DNA from: Escherichia phage DK-13 | Reading direction: 5' to 3' (one strand) | Sequence record: MT611523.1 | Length of the DNA stretch: 64,000 bases | Part shown: positions 51,876-61,489 of the stretch, piece after piece | How the letters are laid out: each line of letters starts with the position of its first letter | How positions within the stretch are numbered: position 1 is the first letter of the stretch | Notes under the pieces: model-generated | The model's database searches: none | Seen by the model: the letters and a program-made list of their open reading frames with translations, nothing else | What the model was told of the DNA's origin: nothing | Made by a program: the position numbers and the translations under genes

Positions 51876-51952
51876 TGGTCGGGGTGGTGGGATTCTAACC
51901 CACAACCTACGGTTTAGAAGACCGTTGCTCTATACAATTGAGCTACACCCCG
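51876..51952 (-). tRNA. tRNA-Arg (anticodon TCT)
   Basis: Hand-folded cloverleaf: acceptor CGGGGTG/CACCCCG, D stem GCTC/GAGC, anticodon stem ACGGT/ACCGT with loop CTTCTAA, T stem GTGGG/CCCAC, encoded CCA. Confidence 0.85.
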
Positions 51953-52028
51953 GGTGGCCCCATCCGGACTTGAACCGGAAACCTGCCAGTTATGAGCCGG
52001 ATGCTCTAACCAATTGAGCTACAGGGCC
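51953..52028 (-). tRNA. tRNA-Ile2-like (anticodon CAT; AUA-decoding after lysidine modification, or Met)
   Basis: Hand-folded cloverleaf: acceptor GGCCCTG/TGGGGCC, anticodon loop CTCATAA, T arm TCCGG-TTCAAGT-CCGGA; overall resembles E. coli tRNA-Ile2; abuts tRNA-Arg. Confidence 0.8.
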
Positions 52029-53288: not shown

Positions 53289-53546
53289 TTACTCACCTTT
53301 AGAGATTTTATCCATAACGAAAGAGATTGAACCAATTAAAAATGCAACTACTAAAGAGATTATATTCTCAGAAGTTGAAAGCATATTCAACATAAAGCCA
53401 GCAAACATGCTAAAACCAAAAGCGGTAACAGCAACAAGGGCAGTAACATTTCTAATTAATTCGCAACGTTTCATTTTATTCTCCTCACTTTTTGATAGGT
53501 CTAGGTTATGATATACTAGACCAGTAACTGTTTTATTCAGCACCAA
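53289..53546 (-). CDS. Small membrane protein
   Basis: 85 aa, two hydrophobic helices. Confidence 0.45.
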   Translation of the reverse strand: MVLNKTVTGLVYHNLDLSKSEENKMKRCELIRNVTALVAVTAFGFSMFAGFMLNMLSTSENIISLVVAFLIGSISFVMDKISKGE

Positions 53547-53754
53547 CGGCTTTCAAAAGTTTTTTAAGGTTGACAATACCACGGGCAGAGAAAGTAACCT
53601 TACCACCTGTTTCAGATACAGAACCTGTAAGTTTTGCCAATTTATCATTTGGTAACTTTTTAAAATCCTTCAGTGTACCATCAAAAGTTTTAGATTGAAT
53701 CGGCAATTCGTCATGCATTTTAGCTTCGTTAATAAATTCTTGATACGTTTTCAT
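53533..53754 (-). CDS. Internal protein (capsid-targeted), array member 5
   Basis: 73 aa; N-terminus MKTYQEFINEA; own family-A promoter cassette upstream. Confidence 0.6.
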   Translation of the reverse strand: MKTYQEFINEAKMHDELPIQSKTFDGTLKDFKKLPNDKLAKLTGSVSETGGKVTFSARGIVNLKKLLKAVGAE

Positions 53755-53811
53755 TTTTTGACCCTCAGTAGTTGATGGGATAATTATACGCTATCCCATT
53801 TAAAAGTACAC
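53755..53811 (-). promoter_or_regulatory. PeSL-like early promoter cassette (family A) with stem-loop
   Basis: Minus strand GTGTAC-N17-TATAAT inside inverted repeat GGGATA/TATCCC, then leader ATCAACTACTGAGGG. Confidence 0.5.
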
Positions 53812-54066
53812 TTATTTTTTAGGGATACGATAGTAACGCATCTCAACATCTTTCTGCTTGTACCACTTTTTGATAAGGTCTTCAGAACCGCTAATAGTAA
53901 CGATGTCATAACGACCATCATGCGATACTTCAGCACTTAACTGCATGAAATTGTCCAGTGAACGACGGAATTCCTCATTGGAAAAACTGCCACGCGGCGA
54001 ACCAACATAAGCAAACTCAACTTTTGCATTTGCAGATTCAGTAATAAATTCTTGATAAGTTTTCAT
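53812..54066 (-). CDS. Internal protein (capsid-targeted), array member 4
   Basis: Start at MKTYQEFITES; own family-A promoter cassette upstream. Confidence 0.6.
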   Translation of the reverse strand: MKTYQEFITESANAKVEFAYVGSPRGSFSNEEFRRSLDNFMQLSAEVSHDGRYDIVTISGSEDLIKKWYKQKDVEMRYYRIPKK

Positions 54067-54122
54067 GTAGTCTCCAGTAGTTGATGAGATAATCATACTA
54101 CAGTTATCCCATCGCGTATACT
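54067..54122 (-). promoter_or_regulatory. PeSL-like early promoter cassette (family A)
   Basis: Minus strand ...GGGATAACTGTAGTATGATTATCTCATCAACTACTGGAG then ATG. Confidence 0.45.
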
Positions 54123-54365
54123 TTATTTTAAGTCTTCCAGACGTTTTTTCATCTTGGTGCCGTTCTTAGCAATTTCACCCGCGTCTGAACAAAGAGCAAG
54201 GAGAGCTTTAACTTTACCCTGGTCGCCTTTAAAAGATGATGCATCTACAGAATCGGCAAGTTCTTTGATACGTGCAAACAGGCGCTCTGCTTCAGCAAGG
54301 GCTTGACCAAGTTTAACTTCCATGCCATGGGAAGATTCTGTTATAAATGTTTGATAAGTTTTCAT
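54123..54365 (-). CDS. Internal protein (capsid-targeted), array member 3
   Basis: 80 aa; N-terminus MKTYQTFITES. Confidence 0.6.
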   Translation of the reverse strand: MKTYQTFITESSHGMEVKLGQALAEAERLFARIKELADSVDASSFKGDQGKVKALLALCSDAGEIAKNGTKMKKRLEDLK

Positions 54366-54373
54366 TTGAAGCC

Positions 54374-54646
54374 TTATTTAAGATAAATTGCATATTTTTT
54401 ATAACCAGCTGTCTCATGACGGAGACCCTTGTCATTGGCAAAACGCTCAATGTTATTAATTTGGTTCTGGTCAAGTTCTGAAATGTCAAACGCGAAAAAG
54501 TTGCGTTTGTTACCAATTGTTATATGGTCAGTCAAGTCAATGCTATACAGGTGATTGATATTGTCAATCATAGATTTGACTGCTTTACTAATTTTTACTT
54601 CTTCATTCAGTTGTGACTCGTTGAAAAATTCATTGAAAGTTTTCAT
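54374..54646 (-). CDS. Internal protein (capsid-targeted), array member 2
   Basis: 90 aa; N-terminus MKTFNEFFNES. Confidence 0.55.
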   Translation of the reverse strand: MKTFNEFFNESQLNEEVKISKAVKSMIDNINHLYSIDLTDHITIGNKRNFFAFDISELDQNQINNIERFANDKGLRHETAGYKKYAIYLK

Positions 54647-55739: not shown

Positions 55740-56416
55740 TATATTACCTTATTAATTTTATCAAAAAGTTCTTCGAGTGTGCCATCGTTTTTAATAACAA
55801 TGTCACTAGCTAGTGGTGGAAGTCCAGCTTCCGTAATGTGTGTATCAGTAGAATGATTTGCTTCATCGCGTTCTACAAAGATTATTGTAGCACCCATCGC
55901 CCGAAGCGAATCAAGTTCGTTCTTTTGACGAACATCTGGGACAACGTAATATTTATATCCAGAATAGAGGTTGTCAAGATAATCGCACGCAAAAGTTTTA
56001 ATCCAAAACATGCTGTCGAACTCTGTACAAACGATGTCAGTTCCAAGGGTCTGCATGAAACGTCTAACTGTCCAGGGCTCAACATTATTTAGTGTGTGAA
56101 ATTCAATGATTTTACGAACCATATCTGGATTCGGAAGGTCAAGATTGTATTGTTGTTTCAACCATTCAAGAGCATCAACCAGAAGAATATAAGCTTCGGT
56201 GTTGTTCATTATCAAGGTTTTTTCACGGTCATAACCTTGTCCATCAAAATTTTCCAGGGTCAAATTGTGTGGCAGGTCTTGACGAATCCACGCTTTATAA
56301 AGCGCTTCTTTAATCGGACCTGCAAGCTGCCACTTTGTTCCGTTTTGACTAATAACATAATCAGCAGTCGTATCTTTACCACTGCGTTTTTTACCCACAA
56401 TCGCAATTAATTTCAT
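55739..56416 (-). CDS. 1: gp1 deoxynucleoside monophosphate kinase
   Basis: 225 aa; P-loop GKKRSGKDT; T4 gene 1 position between 57A and 3. Confidence 0.88.
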
Positions 56417-57012
56417 ACGTTTCTCATAGATGGATGCATTGACTTAGACCTGATTTCCTGTTGCATTGCTGCATTACTATCAATCTGTGGTCTACCTTCT
56501 ATTATTATACCATCAATTTCTACAGCAAAAGACTTAAAATTAAAAGTTGCTGTTGCAATGATAGCCGGGTCAGAATCTTCTTTATACGAATACTGAATCT
56601 CTGACAGGTCGGACGGCCATGCTCCATAGTAATGGATTGACATGACAATTTTGTCCTTGTTGTTATCTAAGATATGAAGCGTGACCGCTTCGGGGCGACC
56701 CTTCGGATGCCATGCTTTTGATTCGTGTGTGATGTAGTTGTTGAGCGAGAGCATCCATTTATAGATATCAAGCCATGCTCTTAAGTCTTTGTCACACAGA
56801 AAGTTAACAATCAGCGGGTCGAATTCTATTGTACTACCAGGAAGACTGGAGCGATTTATGCCTTGTGTTCCGCCAGGAACATCCGTCACAGGAATGTGAA
56901 CTCCTGGGAGGGTAACGTCTTGAACGTTGAGTTTAAAGGTCTGTGTGAGGTTTGAATCGCTCACCTCTAATATAAAGTTAGTCGTGTTAGTTTGATTATA
57001 TAAACCTGACAT
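56413..57012 (-). CDS. 3: gp3 tail tube terminator / sheath stabiliser
   Basis: Start at MSGLYNQ; position between 1 and 2 as in T4. Confidence 0.6.
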   Translation of the reverse strand: MSGLYNQTNTTNFILEVSDSNLTQTFKLNVQDVTLPGVHIPVTDVPGGTQGINRSSLPGSTIEFDPLIVNFLCDKDLRAWLDIYKWMLSLNNYITHESKAWHPKGRPEAVTLHILDNNKDKIVMSIHYYGAWPSDLSEIQYSYKEDSDPAIIATATFNFKSFAVEIDGIIIEGRPQIDSNAAMQQEIRSKSMHPSMRNV

Positions 57013-57097
57013 AGTGCACCTTGTTTGCTTTAAAACAATCAGTGTTATAATGGTTCTAGACCTTTTGTCCTTACCAATAACACTGACCGATAATAGA

Positions 57098-57931
57098 TTA
57101 TGAATTTCTCCATACTTTCTGGGAAGAGAATCTTTTGCCTTTCGACATAAATTGTTGCAACGGAAGCATAACAACGTTTGCCCAGTCGCTGGGCTTGATT
57201 TCAGTGATAGTACCTTTTATATTGCCAGGTATATATGCTTTAATCATCTGGTCAGCCCCTTTAAATCCCTTCACCTTTGACCAATCAATCTTCAGATGAG
57301 TCTTGTTCGTAATCGTAGGAGTATTAGCATATTGCTTAAGAAGTTCCTCAAGGAACTCTTGACGTGCCTTCGGTGGAATATAGTGCAAGTTCAAACCATA
57401 CATCAAATTGTGCTTACCTAGCCCAAGATAAATGATTAACGGATATTTGTCCCAGTACGGAAGAGTATCCTTATGCTTTGCATCATAGATATAAGCATAA
57501 ATCTTACCCGGTTGAGGTTTAGCCGTTACGTGGCCGCGAACTGATTTCTTAATTGTCTCTGCGAACCATCTGGCGGATTTGGTGTTGCTTGCAGCGCCTT
57601 CGTTAGCAATCTTATCTCTTATGCTCTTTCTAAAGCTATTCACCATTATCAGCTGACGTTCAGCCTTCGTAAGTTTACCGGCAGGTTTCTTTTTGAGCTT
57701 GGATACTTTATAAGCAGTCTGAATTCTCGAATGATATCTTGACATGCTTTTGGTAAAGGTCGAATAGTTGATTCCTTTCTCTTCAGCAAACTTCTTCGAG
57801 GTCATTCCCTTTTCTTTTGCTGTATAAAATTCAACCCCTATTTCAACCCATTGTTGTTCTGATTTACTGGGTTTCGGACCTGGTTTATCTGCAGATTCAT
57901 TGATAAATGTAAAAATACTCATCCTTTCCAT
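57098..57931 (-). CDS. 2: gp2 DNA end-protector protein
   Basis: 277 aa (T4 gp2 is 274 aa); basic; position between 3 and 4. Confidence 0.7.
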
Positions 57932-58647
57932 CCTTCTATAAAATTAATCAAATCATTTTTTAAATAGTATGGTAAGGTTTCTGTATAGCCATCGACCATA
58001 ATATCTTTATTCAAATAACCTCTGTCTTTTATATATAAAACAGATATTGCGGATTCTAACATTTTGGCTTGTGCACCCAGTTCAAATTCTCGATAATATA
58101 ATTTGGAACTAATGCATTTGGAAAAATGATTTTGCTGCCACAATCTAAAATCATGATTGGAAGTTATACCATACTTTAAAGCAGTTCCGCCTGGATATTC
58201 TATTTTATTAACATAAACAATAGCAGGTTTCTTTGCGTTAAATCCTTTGTGACAACAGTTTGGACATCCTTTGTTTTTTGTTGTAAAGTTGTTTAGATTT
58301 GTAATCCAACTGGTTGAACATGTAGAACACTTTATATAGGCTTTTGATTTTGTAAAAGTTGAATATGTGGTATCCCATTTATCAAAACTATACAATGGAT
58401 TCACGGAATTTATTCTTGTGATTGCATCTAATTCAGATATTAATTTGCTTTCACCATAAGAACGTTTTAAATTACAATTAGAACACCAACTTTTTGTTTT
58501 TAACTTATGCTTTAAAACAGTTGCTTTGTATTTGCATGTTTCTTCACATATAAAGCACTTTACAAATATCAAAGTTTTTGATTTATTAAAATCGCCTTGT
58601 CCCACTATCTCGCCATTTGTGATGTTAAAATCTGAACAATCGTACAT
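57919..58647 (-). CDS. Zinc-finger protein with GIY-YIG/T5orf172-like nuclease module (putative mobile endonuclease)
   Basis: 242 aa; two Cys clusters; [24 protein letters not shown]...R resembles the GIY-(10-11)-YIG pattern; markedly AT-rich coding DNA; inserted between genes 2 and 4. Confidence 0.5.
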
Positions 58648-59099
58648 TATAAACCCTTATATCCCATTTTTCTAAGCGCATCTTCAGTAATCAATCTAAA
58701 CTGGATGCCCATTTTATCGGCTACGGCCTGCGCTGCTTTCCACTTATCCTTGTTAACGGCCCAAGTGTACATTTCGTTCATAAACCTCTTCTTACTTGCG
58801 GCGGTCGTATTGACTGGTTTTGCCGGCGGCCTTGTTTCCTTTTTGGGTTTGACCTCAAAGAAAAACTGTTGTCCATTTGAGAATTTCACCCACATATCCA
58901 TGTAATATCTGCGTTTTTTACCATCCGCATTACTGAAATATGGAATAATTACGGTCTCAGAGCCCCATTGTATCACATCTGGATGATTATCTAACCAATT
59001 AAATACAAATTTTTCCCAATTTGACCTGTATGTGATTTTCTTCCAGTCTCCTTTGTACTTGGCAACGTTTTTTGGCTGCCACTTCCCGGAGTATGCCAT
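58647..59099 (-). CDS. 4: gp4 head completion protein
   Basis: 150 aa (same as T4 gp4); divergent from gene 53 with late promoter upstream. Confidence 0.7.
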   Translation of the reverse strand: MAYSGKWQPKNVAKYKGDWKKITYRSNWEKFVFNWLDNHPDVIQWGSETVIIPYFSNADGKKRRYYMDMWVKFSNGQQFFFEVKPKKETRPPAKPVNTTAASKKRFMNEMYTWAVNKDKWKAAQAVADKMGIQFRLITEDALRKMGYKGL

Positions 59100-59127
59100 A
59101 TAGCCTCCTAATAAATATTGATATACT

Positions 59128-59139
59128 TATTTATAAATG
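59128..59139. promoter_or_regulatory. Overlapping divergent late promoters for genes 4 and 53
   Basis: Minus-strand exact TATAAATA (59128-59135) upstream of gene 4; plus-strand TATAAATG (59132-59139) upstream of gene 53 RBS GGAGG. Confidence 0.5.
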
Positions 59140-59147
59140 GAGGCTTT

Positions 59148-59750
59148 ATGCTTTTTTCATTTTTTAACCCAATTGATTATGATGCTAAAACAATCAGAAA
59201 AAACTCGGCATCATTAACGAAAGAAGACGTCTTAAGCATCCCAATGACTGACATCTTCAGAAACTATCGTGCCTATTTTGATAAGGTTGCGGTTAATTAT
59301 ACACCGAAAACATATTACATCGCTGGAGCTCCAAGACCTGAAGAACTTGCATATCAGCTCTATGGTAATACTCAACTCTATTGGGTTCTCCTTATGCTTA
59401 ATGATATCTATGACCCGTATTATGGTTGGATATGTTCACAAGAATCATCGTATCAGGCATCAATTCAACGCTATTCGAATATAGGTGGTAATCAGGTTCT
59501 TTATCATGTAAATGAAGATGGTGAAAAATTCTGGAATCTTGTTTCTTATCCTGATAATCCGTACACCTGGTATGATAAAGGTGATAAGAATAAATTGTAC
59601 CCACAATATGAAGGTCCATTAGCTGCAGTAGATATCTATGAAGATGCTATTCGTAAAAATGAATATAAACGAGAAATAAAGATAATCGACCCTAATGATA
59701 TCGAATCATTTATTTCGGCATTAATCCGTGAGATGGAGAAGTCATTATGA
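59148..59750 (+). CDS. 53: gp53 baseplate wedge protein
   Basis: Start at MLFSFFNPIDYD; strongly similar to T4 gp53 (IPMTDIFRNY...TYYI.G.PRPEELA...LYWVLLM.ND.YDPYYGW). Confidence 0.9.
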   Translation: MLFSFFNPIDYDAKTIRKNSASLTKEDVLSIPMTDIFRNYRAYFDKVAVNYTPKTYYIAGAPRPEELAYQLYGNTQLYWVLLMLNDIYDPYYGWICSQESSYQASIQRYSNIGGNQVLYHVNEDGEKFWNLVSYPDNPYTWYDKGDKNKLYPQYEGPLAAVDIYEDAIRKNEYKREIKIIDPNDIESFISALIREMEKSL

Positions 59751-61489
59751 TTAATATGTCAGATAATGTAAGTTGGTTCGTCGGTGTTGTCGAAGACCGA
59801 ATGGACCCACTTCAACAAGGTCGAGTCCGTGTCCGTGTATGGGGTATGCATCCATATGAGAAATCGCAAGGACCTGTAAAAGGTATCAGAACTGAAGACC
59901 TGCCATGGATGTCTGTACTGATGCCAACATCATCTGCATCAGTTTCTGGTATTCAAACTGCAATGACCGGTATGGTGCCAGGGACTCAGGTATATGGTCA
60001 CTTTTTAGACAAGTGGAAACTCAACGGACTTGTTATTGGTACGTATGGTTCAACCTCAAGACAAAAAGCAAATCCCAACGAAGGCTTCTCTGACCCCACA
60101 GGACAATATCCACTTTATGTAGGTAATGATGCTGCTGCGCTCAACCGAGGCGGTGAGGTCGGTTACGATGCAACTTCGAACGTAATTCAGGATGCAAACA
60201 CCGATGTAGGTATTAACCCTGATGGCCTTGATTTGAGTCAAGTTAAGCCAGATGATAATCCTAATTTCACAATTGAAAATATGCTTCACCGTGATGAAGG
60301 TCTTCGTTTGAAAGTATATTGGGACACCGAAGGTTATCCTACTATAGGTATAGGACACTTAATTGCACCACAACCTATTAGAGATATGAATCAGATAAAC
60401 AAAATATTATCTAATCAAATAGGCCGTGAAGTTAAAGGTAACCCTGGTGCAATATCAATGGACGAGGCTTCTAAGTTATTCCAGGAAGACCTTAAAAAAG
60501 TTCAAAACGATATAGGCCGGCATAGTGTTGTAGGCCCGGTTTACAATAAAGAAAACCGTTCGAGACAAATGGCTCTTGAAAACATGGCTTTCCAAATGGG
60601 ATTGGGTGGATTGGCTAAATTCCGTGGAATGCTTAGCGCAATGTTAGTAGGTGATTATAAAAAAGCATTTGAGGAAGCTCGTAATTCAGTATGGTTTAAC
60701 CAAACTAAAGGCCGTGCATCAAGGGTGTCAATGATTATCCTCACAGGTAACATGGAATCATATGGTATTATGGCCCCTAAAGAAAGGTCATTTAAAGGGC
60801 GTTCATATAGGATGATTCAAACCTTTGTAGCCCCTGCAAATTCTGACCCAGCCGACCCGTGGACTCCAGAAGATACGAGGATTCTGTTTAAAGAGCCAGA
60901 ATCCAGTTACAAGGGCGAATATCCTTATGTGCAGACAATGCAAACTGAAGGCGGTCATATTCAGGAATTCGATAATACCCCTGGACAAGAACGTTATCGA
61001 CTGATTCACCCGACCGGTTCCTACGAGGAAGTTGCACCAGATGGTCGTAAGACTTCGAAGACGGTAGCTGATGGTTATTATATGACCCAGGGTGATTCGA
61101 GTACTTATGTTGGTGGTAATAATAAAGTCAACGTTGGTGGTGATGAAACCTATTACAATATGGCTAATGTTCGACGTCAGACCGATGGAAACGAAAGCAT
61201 TCATATTCGTGGGAATGAAACCAAAACCATTGAAGGTGACGGTACAATTATTGTCAAAGGTAATGTAAGTATTCTGGTCGAAGGTAATGCTGAAATAACT
61301 GTTAAAGGTGACGCAAAAACTCTTGTCGAAGGTAACCATGATTATACGGTAAATGGTAATGTCAAATGGTCCGTTAATGGAAACGTTGATATGACCGTGG
61401 CTGGCAATTGGTCCGAAACAATGTCAACAATGAGTTCTATTGCATCTGGTCAATATACTATTGATGGTTCGAGGATTGACATTGGCTAA
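59747..61489 (+). CDS. 5: gp5 baseplate hub and tail lysozyme (cell-puncturing device)
   Basis: 580 aa; central lysozyme domain (GLRLKVYWDTEGYPTIGIGHLI) and C-terminal VxGxxxxx beta-helix repeats. Confidence 0.95.
   Translation: MINMSDNVSWFVGVVEDRMDPLQQGRVRVRVWGMHPYEKSQGPVKGIRTEDLPWMSVLMPTSSASVSGIQTAMTGMVPGTQVYGHFLDKWKLNGLVIGTYGSTSRQKANPNEGFSDPTGQYPLYVGNDAAALNRGGEVGYDATSNVIQDANTDVGINPDGLDLSQVKPDDNPNFTIENMLHRDEGLRLKVYWDTEGYPTIGIGHLIAPQPIRDMNQINKILSNQIGREVKGNPGAISMDEASKLFQEDLKKVQNDIGRHSVVGPVYNKENRSRQMALENMAFQMGLGGLAKFRGMLSAMLVGDYKKAFEEARNSVWFNQTKGRASRVSMIILTGNMESYGIMAPKERSFKGRSYRMIQTFVAPANSDPADPWTPEDTRILFKEPESSYKGEYPYVQTMQTEGGHIQEFDNTPGQERYRLIHPTGSYEEVAPDGRKTSKTVADGYYMTQGDSSTYVGGNNKVNVGGDETYYNMANVRRQTDGNESIHIRGNETKTIEGDGTIIVKGNVSILVEGNAEITVKGDAKTLVEGNHDYTVNGNVKWSVNGNVDMTVAGNWSETMSTMSSIASGQYTIDGSRIDIG

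Follow-up and report, generated by a model that had tools for sequence, protein, structure and literature searches.

Between the head completion gene 4 and the DNA end protector gene 2 of Escherichia phage DK-13 (sequence record MT611523.1) lies a 242-codon open reading frame (ORF) that is probably a free-standing homing endonuclease gene of the T5orf172 class. We find it within a 64,000-nucleotide stretch of this genome, called here the window. The phage is T-even and Gaprivervirus-like, and the segment 56900–59400 is 98.5% identical to Escherichia phage vB_EcoM_RZ (RZ). The encoded protein has two zinc-finger modules followed by a domain with the fold and the intact catalytic residues of a GIY-YIG nuclease, and judged by its sequence it is probably an active enzyme. 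The gene is present in some and absent from other closely related phages, occupies the same position in five lineages, is embedded in an operon and lies beside a replaced block of the size of gene 4. The element has been annotated in databases so far as 'hypothetical protein' or 'endonuclease'. The gene and its immediate neighbors are arranged as follows.

57919–58647, minus strand: endonuclease ORF (ATG start, 242 amino acids), encoding two zinc-finger modules and then a nuclease of the GIY-YIG/T5orf172 type.
58647–59099, minus strand: gene 4 (encoding the head completion protein, with a TnsA-like fold), here a foreign allele of 453 bp inherited along with the ORF.
57098–57922, minus strand: gene 2 (DNA end protector), the resident allele.

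The order on the minus strand is gene 4, the ORF, gene 2, gene 3, gene 1, 57A and 57B, while genes 53 and 5 are on the plus strand beyond 59118.

The protein is divided into three parts.

58468–58620, minus strand: zinc-finger module 1 (approximately residues 10–60; C31-x2-C34 and C55-x2-C58), a beta-beta-beta-alpha unit with pLDDT 86–91.
58246–58398, minus strand: zinc-finger module 2 (approximately residues 84–134; C107-x2-C110 and C128-x2-C131), of the CapR-homology/DUF4379 treble-clef type.
57922–58245, minus strand: nuclease domain of the GIY-YIG superfamily, T5orf172/MUG113 branch (residues 135–242; Y145, K158-Y159-G160, R168, E198 and D219-G-Y-T-E223-T).

A preliminary description of the DNA had noted two Cys clusters followed by a segment VYV-(11)-KYGIT-(6)-R resembling the GIY-YIG/T5orf172 nuclease core. 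The clusters correspond to C31/C34/C55/C58 and C107/C110/C128/C131, and the motif is there, although its last spacing is 5, a trivial miscount. An AlphaFold model calculated from the alignment has a pLDDT of 89.6, with values of 92–98 in the C-terminal domain and no segment below 50. Its two finger modules are beta-beta-beta-alpha units, followed by a helical linker and a C-terminal domain of alpha/beta type. The GIY-YIG fold is present in the latter as a three-stranded beta-sheet flanked by helices, and GIY-YIG nucleases are returned repeatedly by fold search. A profile of the C-terminal domain built from 45 sequences matches the GIY-YIG proteins 1ywl and 1zg2 with E 0.018 and 0.045, placing Y145, Y159-G160, R168 and E198 in register with the GIY, YIG, Arg and Glu elements of those proteins. 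Y145, G160, R168 and E198 are invariant across the 45 homologues. With the SLX1/UPF0213 (URI-type) GIY-YIG proteins the catalytic fold alone is in common, at 16–19% identity and with no functional relationship. These are cellular structure-specific or uncharacterised nucleases, and SLX1 has a C-terminal RING/PHD finger.

The ORF protein matches phrog_681 ('endonuclease') with E 2.5e-29. Exhaustive phmmer searching of 1.84e9 representative proteins finds 1097 homologues at E ≤ 1e-3, compared with just 2 proteins from a word-indexed search, and many of these homologues have 2–9 repeated finger stretches. In an alignment of 29 family members the invariant residues are C128, C131, Y145, K158, G160, R168, G191, E198, G220, E223 and T224. 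Pfam matches among the same 29 are to DUF4379 in 25, CapR in 21, MUG113 in 15, T5orf172 in 8 and GIY-YIG in 5. The Pfam cut-offs are 20 bits for T5orf172, 22.3 for MUG113 and 24.5 for DUF4379. Positional orthologue P0005 scores above cut-off for T5orf172 (30.6 bits), MUG113 (31.4) and CapR (47.8), and P0004 does so for T5orf172 (21.7), while P0002, which is 69% identical, falls narrowly below the T5orf172 cut-off at 19.5 bits. P0004 and P0005 are related to the ORF protein at phmmer E 4e-34 and 1e-29. The profile match to 1ywl and 1zg2 and the Pfam matches within the family together bear out the suggested nuclease core.

All eight Cys residues of the two clusters are invariant in the positional orthologues, and C128 and C131 are so throughout the 29 family members. 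A 25-nt DNA repeat relates 58567–58591 to 58333–58357 with a spacing of 234 nt, that is 78 codons. Taken with the structural model, this repeat identifies the fingers as tandem duplicates; self-alignment of the two modules at the protein level is weak, and is not significant alone (z 1.8). DUF4379 is matched by the ORF protein itself at 20.8 bits, below the cut-off of 24.5, and CapR (PF21817) is above its cut-off at the residues aligned with module 2 in the orthologues P0002, P0003 and P0005, and likewise in the T5 protein T5.141. When compared with sequences in the PDB the full-length profile finds mainly zinc ribbons, including the DUF4379 zinc ribbon 6sga_Fd with E 0.002. From their sequences we infer that the finger modules bind DNA.

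The gene matches the published description of T5orf172 genes point by point, and N-terminal fingers are therefore expected. Endonuclease genes of this class normally have at least one N-terminal CapR/DUF723/DUF4397 zinc-finger module, often in intragenic repeats; they adjoin essential genes at allele-exchange boundaries, and one endonuclease family can displace another at a slot (Barth et al. 2023, PMC10448857). T4 is without T5orf172 genes (PMC10448857). The CapR homology domain takes its name from a capsid repressor that the Vibrio PLE satellite encodes; CapR descends from the N-terminal DNA-binding domain of the T5orf172 homing endonucleases of ICP1, and requires its four cysteines for DNA binding (Netter et al. 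2021, PMC8096241). A nuclease of T5orf172 type relies on the conserved Glu (PMC8096241, PMC10448857). The fingers had been called unusual in being N-terminal, but this is the standard architecture of the T5orf172 class (PMC10448857, PMC8096241).

Like ICP1 gp165/gp174 and the T5orf172 endonucleases of T5-like phages, the ORF protein has N-terminal CxxC...CxxC modules and a C-terminal T5orf172/MUG113 nuclease of the GIY-YIG clan. Its gene is likewise free-standing, is located beside essential structural genes at an allele-exchange boundary, and has a slot shared with other families. It differs from them in residing in a T-even (Gaprivervirus-like) host, in belonging to a sub-lineage dedicated to the junction of genes 4 and 2 (the 4|2 junction), and in encoding a protein diverged enough to miss the Pfam thresholds. 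The spacing between the Cys pairs is also shorter than that reported for CapR, at 20 and 17 residues against 24–26, and the second pair has the form CxxC instead of CxC. PLE CapR, from a satellite of Vibrio cholerae phage, has a homologous zinc-finger module but is a domesticated repressor lacking the nuclease. The ORF protein does not conform to a domesticated repressor of CapR type, as its C-terminal nuclease domain is complete with invariant catalytic residues.

A direct homologue is T5.141 of phage T5 ('endonuclease', RB49ORF239c-like; phrog_681), with 36% identity over residues 86–227; a similar protein (P0008) is found by phmmer with E 2.5e-20. T5.141 has two zinc modules (CapR E 2e-24) and then the same C-terminal domain with DGYTET. 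Like the ORF it lies between late structural genes, but in a different phage family and at a different insertion site, and both are known from sequence. T5.141 (95777–96529 in phage T5) has no Pfam match to T5orf172, MUG113 or GIY-YIG despite having the Y/KxG/R/E/DGYTET invariants. Part of this branch of nucleases is thus invisible to current Pfam models.

The T4 Seg endonucleases, such as SegF and SegG, are also free-standing genes of the GIY-YIG superfamily placed between conserved T-even genes, and the preliminary description had called the gene seg-like. This did not hold up. In Seg proteins the GIY-YIG domain is at the N-terminus and NUMOD/HTH elements are at the C-terminus, the opposite order from the ORF protein, and they fall under the classical GIY-YIG/SegE Pfam models rather than T5orf172/MUG113. 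We found no NUMOD match, and no relationship to the Seg-like gene of phage PSD2001, whose product matches Pfam GIY-YIG, SegE_GIY-YIG and NUMOD3. Membership of the T4 Seg family (SegA–G) is rejected on the basis of domain order and the lack of NUMOD matches.

In T4 genes 4 and 2 are contiguous with one base in common, as the preliminary description had stated, and in SP18 they meet in an ATGA overlap. The ORF is absent from T4 and from most Gapriverviruses; in SP18, pEC-M719-6WT.2, VR7, TH55 and T4, genes 4 and 2 overlap precisely, by ATGA or by one base. Of the 30 phage records that match best at the DNA level, 24 have nothing between genes 4 and 2, three hold this ORF (RZ twice, and fPSFA) and the remaining three hold a different gene there. 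The comparison of junctions confirms the insertion proposed at this point, and presence and absence among near-identical phages, together with the architecture of the protein, support the suggestion of a horizontally acquired homing endonuclease gene.

The five closest homologues, with identities of 100, 69, 45, 39 and 35%, all occupy the 4|2 junction. The more diverged of these copies are from Yersinia phage MHG19 (69%) and three metagenomic T4-like phages (loci L013, L015 and L025). In the phages with the diverged copies the products of genes 4 and 2 (gp4 and gp2) are 60–70% identical to the proteins of the DK-13 locus, and divergence of the endonuclease across the five lineages parallels that of gp4 and gp2. 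A scan of IMG/VR with the alignment of orthologues gives distant relatives alone (24–38% identity), with no further copies at the 4|2 junction. More distant homologues lie elsewhere: T5.141 is located between tail chaperone and tape-measure genes, and others are found in jumbo phages.

The same slot contains a Seg-like gene of GIY-YIG and NUMOD3 type in PSD2001, P479 and vB_YenM_P8. In these three phages the upstream junction is identical to that of the DK-13 locus, including the first two codons of the inserted ORF. Neither BLASTP nor hhalign detects similarity between the ORF protein and the PSD2001 Seg-like protein, and we therefore reject the idea that the two occupants are diverged alleles. 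Thus in phages with flanks that are >90% identical one slot exists in three states: empty, T5orf172-type and Seg-like.

In Gapriverviruses the short stretch containing genes 53-4-2-3 (56400–59750) forms a hot spot of endonuclease genes. VR7, VR25, fPSFA, P479 and TH55 have a MobB-like HNH gene between genes 3 and 2, TH55 has a second HNH gene between genes 4 and 53, and PSD2001 has an extra 636-bp ORF between genes 53 and 5. Of the hot-spot endonuclease genes, the DK-13 locus has the T5orf172-type one alone.

Adjacent to the ORF we find that gene 4 has been replaced. Identity was profiled in 100-bp bins against the empty-site relative pEC-M719-6WT.2. It is 96–100% through genes 3 and 2 to the junction, falls to 62–78% at the nucleotide level over exactly the gene 4 coding sequence, and returns to 95–100% from 59100 through gene 53 (~59800). 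Relative to SP18, gp4 is 77% identical in amino acid sequence and gp2 98%. Across 50,697 phage records, gene 4 alleles that are >80% identical to this one exist solely in six records whose slot is occupied by an endonuclease gene. PSD2001, P479 and vB_YenM_P8, which carry the Seg-like gene, have the same gene 4 allele (~90% nucleotide, 98% amino acid identity). DNA similarity between MHG19 and RZ covers 300 nt at the 3' end of gene 4, continues through the endonuclease gene and ends at gene 2; an equivalent comparison of boundaries around MHG19 found no close relative of that phage in the collection.

In T4, SegF acting at gene 56 and SegG at gene 32 lead to co-conversion or marker exclusion of the adjacent gene. 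The replaced block of gene 4 is the footprint expected if cleavage in the gene 4 region were followed by repair with co-conversion. Gene 4 is probably the location of the cleavage site, or the source of immunity to it, as judged from this pattern of identity. The gene 4 protein itself has an N-terminal TnsA-like endonuclease fold (Pfam PF08722 Tn7_TnsA-like_N, 80 bits), and in one relative it is labelled 'head completion nuclease'. Gene 5 departs from pEC-M719-6WT.2 in patches, with 77% identity at 60000–60099 and 63–70% at 61200–61399, the rest being 90–99%. Such patches point to small mosaic replacements within this gene, which encodes the baseplate hub/lysozyme.

The ORF overlaps both of its neighbors.

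58645–58649, minus strand: TAATG stop/start overlap of the gene 4 stop with the endonuclease ATG (one base in common), read from the sequence.
57919–57922, minus strand: ATGA overlap of the endonuclease TGA with the gene 2 ATG (57920–57922), read from the sequence.
57919–57933, minus strand: relic of the 3' end of the resident gene 4, GGATGGAAAGGATGA (GGA TGG AAA GGA TGA, encoding G W K G stop), from alignment with the empty site of SP18.

The TAATG overlap would couple translation of the endonuclease gene to that of gene 4. The relic is in frame, provides the final codons and stop of the endonuclease ORF, and holds the ribosome-binding site of gene 2 as well as the ATGA overlap. In MHG19 the homologous gene is flanked by a perfect 18-nt direct repeat of this relic sequence, AGGATGGAAAGGATAATG, the copies lying 728 nt apart; the upstream copy, still perfect there, has diverged in the DK-13 locus. 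The repeat in MHG19 indicates that the inserted unit duplicated the coupling signal, and that the new gene and gene 2 each use it. The ORF differs from the genes of RZ and fPSFA at just 2 nt, both silent, and the proteins are 100% identical. The start of gene 2 at 57922 (MSIFTF) agrees with every annotated relative, SP18 and PSD2001 among them, and the in-frame ATG at 57931 in an automatic list of ORFs is probably not the real start. For gene 3 the probable start is the ATG at 57012 (MSGLYNQ), giving a length of 600 nt like that in SP18, and not the TTG at 57174. With these two starts the apparent overlap of genes 2 and 3 disappears.

A candidate promoter lies upstream of gene 4.

59128–59135, minus strand: T4-type late promoter consensus TATAAATA, an exact match 29 nt upstream of the gene 4 start.

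There are 5 matches to TATAAATA in the window where 5.2 are expected, which is chance level, and the call of a late promoter is therefore based on its position alone. It is the likely source of a transcript through gene 4, the endonuclease gene and gene 2. A scan for sigma-70 promoters and terminators inside the insert found no excess over shuffled sequences. Hairpins that sequester the ribosome-binding site regulate some T4 endonuclease genes; on folding the RNA at the start and stop junctions we found no such hairpin, and at the TAATG overlap the minimum free energy of −7.3 kcal/mol is weaker than that of shuffled sequences. With no promoter, terminator or hairpin of its own, the insert is most simply regarded as a passenger on the late gene 4–gene 2 message with coupled translation.

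The ORF is more AT-rich than its neighbors, as was noted initially. Its GC content of 0.296 compares with 0.395 for the window and is the lowest among 70 gene proxies; compared with every 729-bp window slid along the 64 kb it has z −3.9, and so low a value occurs nowhere else. GC is 0.288 against 0.491 at codon position 1 (z −3.9) and 0.230 against 0.362 at position 3 (z −2.1), both the lowest of the 70, and is ordinary at position 2. In the codon-usage comparison that had been proposed, an index of synonymous preference resembling the codon adaptation index is ordinary (z 0.18, rank 35 of 70) and reveals no foreign codon preference. Amino acid composition and position 3 thus account for the AT-richness, and a foreign codon dialect does not. 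In other phages the homologous genes are AT-rich too, with GC of 0.25–0.32 against 0.36–0.42 in the flanking genes.

From these comparisons we infer late expression, cleavage with a target in gene 4, and present-day mobility, which could be combined in the following mechanism. A late promoter upstream of gene 4 would drive one transcript of gene 4, the endonuclease gene and gene 2, with translation of the endonuclease coupled to the gene 4 stop codon. The two tandem treble-clef zinc-finger modules of CapR/DUF4379 type would read a specific DNA sequence, and the C-terminal GIY-YIG domain (Y145, Y159-G160, R168, E198) would cleave the DNA. When a carrier and a related phage without the gene infect the same cell, the enzyme would cut gene 4, or the 4|2 region, of the latter. 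Repair of the break by recombination with the donor would then bring in the endonuclease gene and the linked, cleavage-resistant gene 4 allele by co-conversion.

Several points weigh against a homing endonuclease. This reading is drawn from comparison of sequences, for the ORF protein as for its close relatives. The ORF protein has no Pfam match to PF10544 (T5orf172), PF13455 (MUG113) or PF01541 (GIY-YIG) even at E ≤ 10, and direct Pfam, NCBIfam and PHROG scans add to phrog_681 only the sub-threshold match to DUF4379. The replacement of gene 4 could equally stem from ordinary homologous recombination with a diverged phage, and the parallel divergence of endonuclease, gp4 and gp2 would also be expected if the gene had long been inherited vertically instead of homing often. 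Finally, if the gene is expressed from the late operon alone, the enzyme could come too late for efficient homing.

Long retention would be expected of a domesticated endonuclease, acting mainly as a weapon or a regulator rather than as a selfish homing gene. As a weapon it would exclude co-infecting relatives by cleaving gene 4, in the manner of SegG marker exclusion or ICP1 Odn, without selection for its own spread; as a regulator it would be a sequence-specific DNA-binding repressor, comparable to PLE CapR or to autorepression by I-TevI. Proteins of T5orf172/CapR type derived from homing endonuclease genes have indeed been co-opted, as the anti-satellite nuclease Odn and the transcriptional repressor CapR (PMC8096241, PMC10448857). 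Tight embedding in an essential late operon and divergence in parallel with the flanking genes in five lineages are in accord with such a role. We nevertheless consider it unlikely. Regulators of CapR type have lost the nuclease domain, which is complete here with invariant catalytic residues, and most close relatives do without the gene, an argument against an important function for the host. The known defence-system models of PADLOC give no match, the best having E 0.18 and 10.2 bits. Exclusion and homing moreover share one biochemistry, and the difference lies in what selection acts upon.

Homing endonuclease genes often degenerate once fixed, and the ORF could be a decaying remnant that was carried in passively with the gene 4 segment by ordinary homologous recombination and no longer cuts. 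Scores below every Pfam nuclease threshold would fit with this, as would a junction repeat whose upstream copy is diverged here and perfect in MHG19. We give this an equally low probability. The frame is full-length and co-linear with orthologues at 35–69% identity, all eight zinc ligands and the GIY-YIG hallmark residues are retained, the only 2 nt that differ in RZ and fPSFA leave the protein unchanged, and the structural model is confident, with no segment under pLDDT 50. It is far less probable that the ORF encodes an accessory zinc-finger protein without nuclease function, such as a structural or assembly factor for head completion, whose motif resemblance is fortuitous. The location among virion-assembly genes and weak Pfam matches to the zinc-binding metallochaperone HypA might suggest this. 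Yet the fold search returns GIY-YIG nucleases repeatedly, and homologues have T5orf172, MUG113 or GIY-YIG domains above threshold. They occur in unrelated contexts in T5 and jumbo phages, as for a mobile gene, and T4 and most relatives assemble heads without the protein.

Beyond a homing endonuclease gene as such, we tentatively raise the possibility that gene 4 and the endonuclease gene together make up a mobile cassette of two genes, a minimal 'HEG island', HEG denoting homing endonuclease gene. A T-even-specific sub-lineage of T5orf172 endonucleases may have long co-evolved with alleles of gene 4. Its members may target resident gene 4 at a distance from the insertion point, and may always carry a resistant gene 4 along. 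The unit may have captured a duplicate of the gene 4 3' end with the gene 2 ribosome-binding site, allowing coupled translation in the late operon. T5orf172-type and Seg-like endonucleases may have been exchanged in the slot with the linked gene 4 allele kept.

Two further features of the window lie apart from this locus. Adjacent tRNA-Arg(TCT) and tRNA-Met(CAT) genes at 51876–52028, minus strand, match the tRNA region of relatives. An array of four small paralogous ORFs at 53533–54646, minus strand, has the N-termini MKTYQEFI or MKTFNEFF, which we take to be the capsid-targeting sequence of T4 internal proteins. This stretch has indel differences from both pEC-M719-6WT.2 and PSD2001, with no alignment at ~53500–53730 / 54350, and looks like a hypervariable internal-protein locus.

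The element is of an ordinary, known kind, and nothing fundamental is changed by it, but it is a clean example. It adds a clear T-even case to the recently described T5orf172/CapR class, which is lacking in T4, the reference phage for homing endonucleases. The 'hypothetical protein' between genes 4 and 2 in RZ, fPSFA and MHG19 would be better named 'T5orf172-type homing endonuclease'. Three states of one slot and a sharply bounded replaced block consisting of one essential gene make a tidy natural experiment, in which cleavage at a distant site, co-conversion of gene 4 and turnover of endonucleases become testable in an easy coliphage system. If gene 4 and the endonuclease gene do form a mobile cassette, then the endonuclease would drive replacement of the head completion gene in Tevenvirinae.

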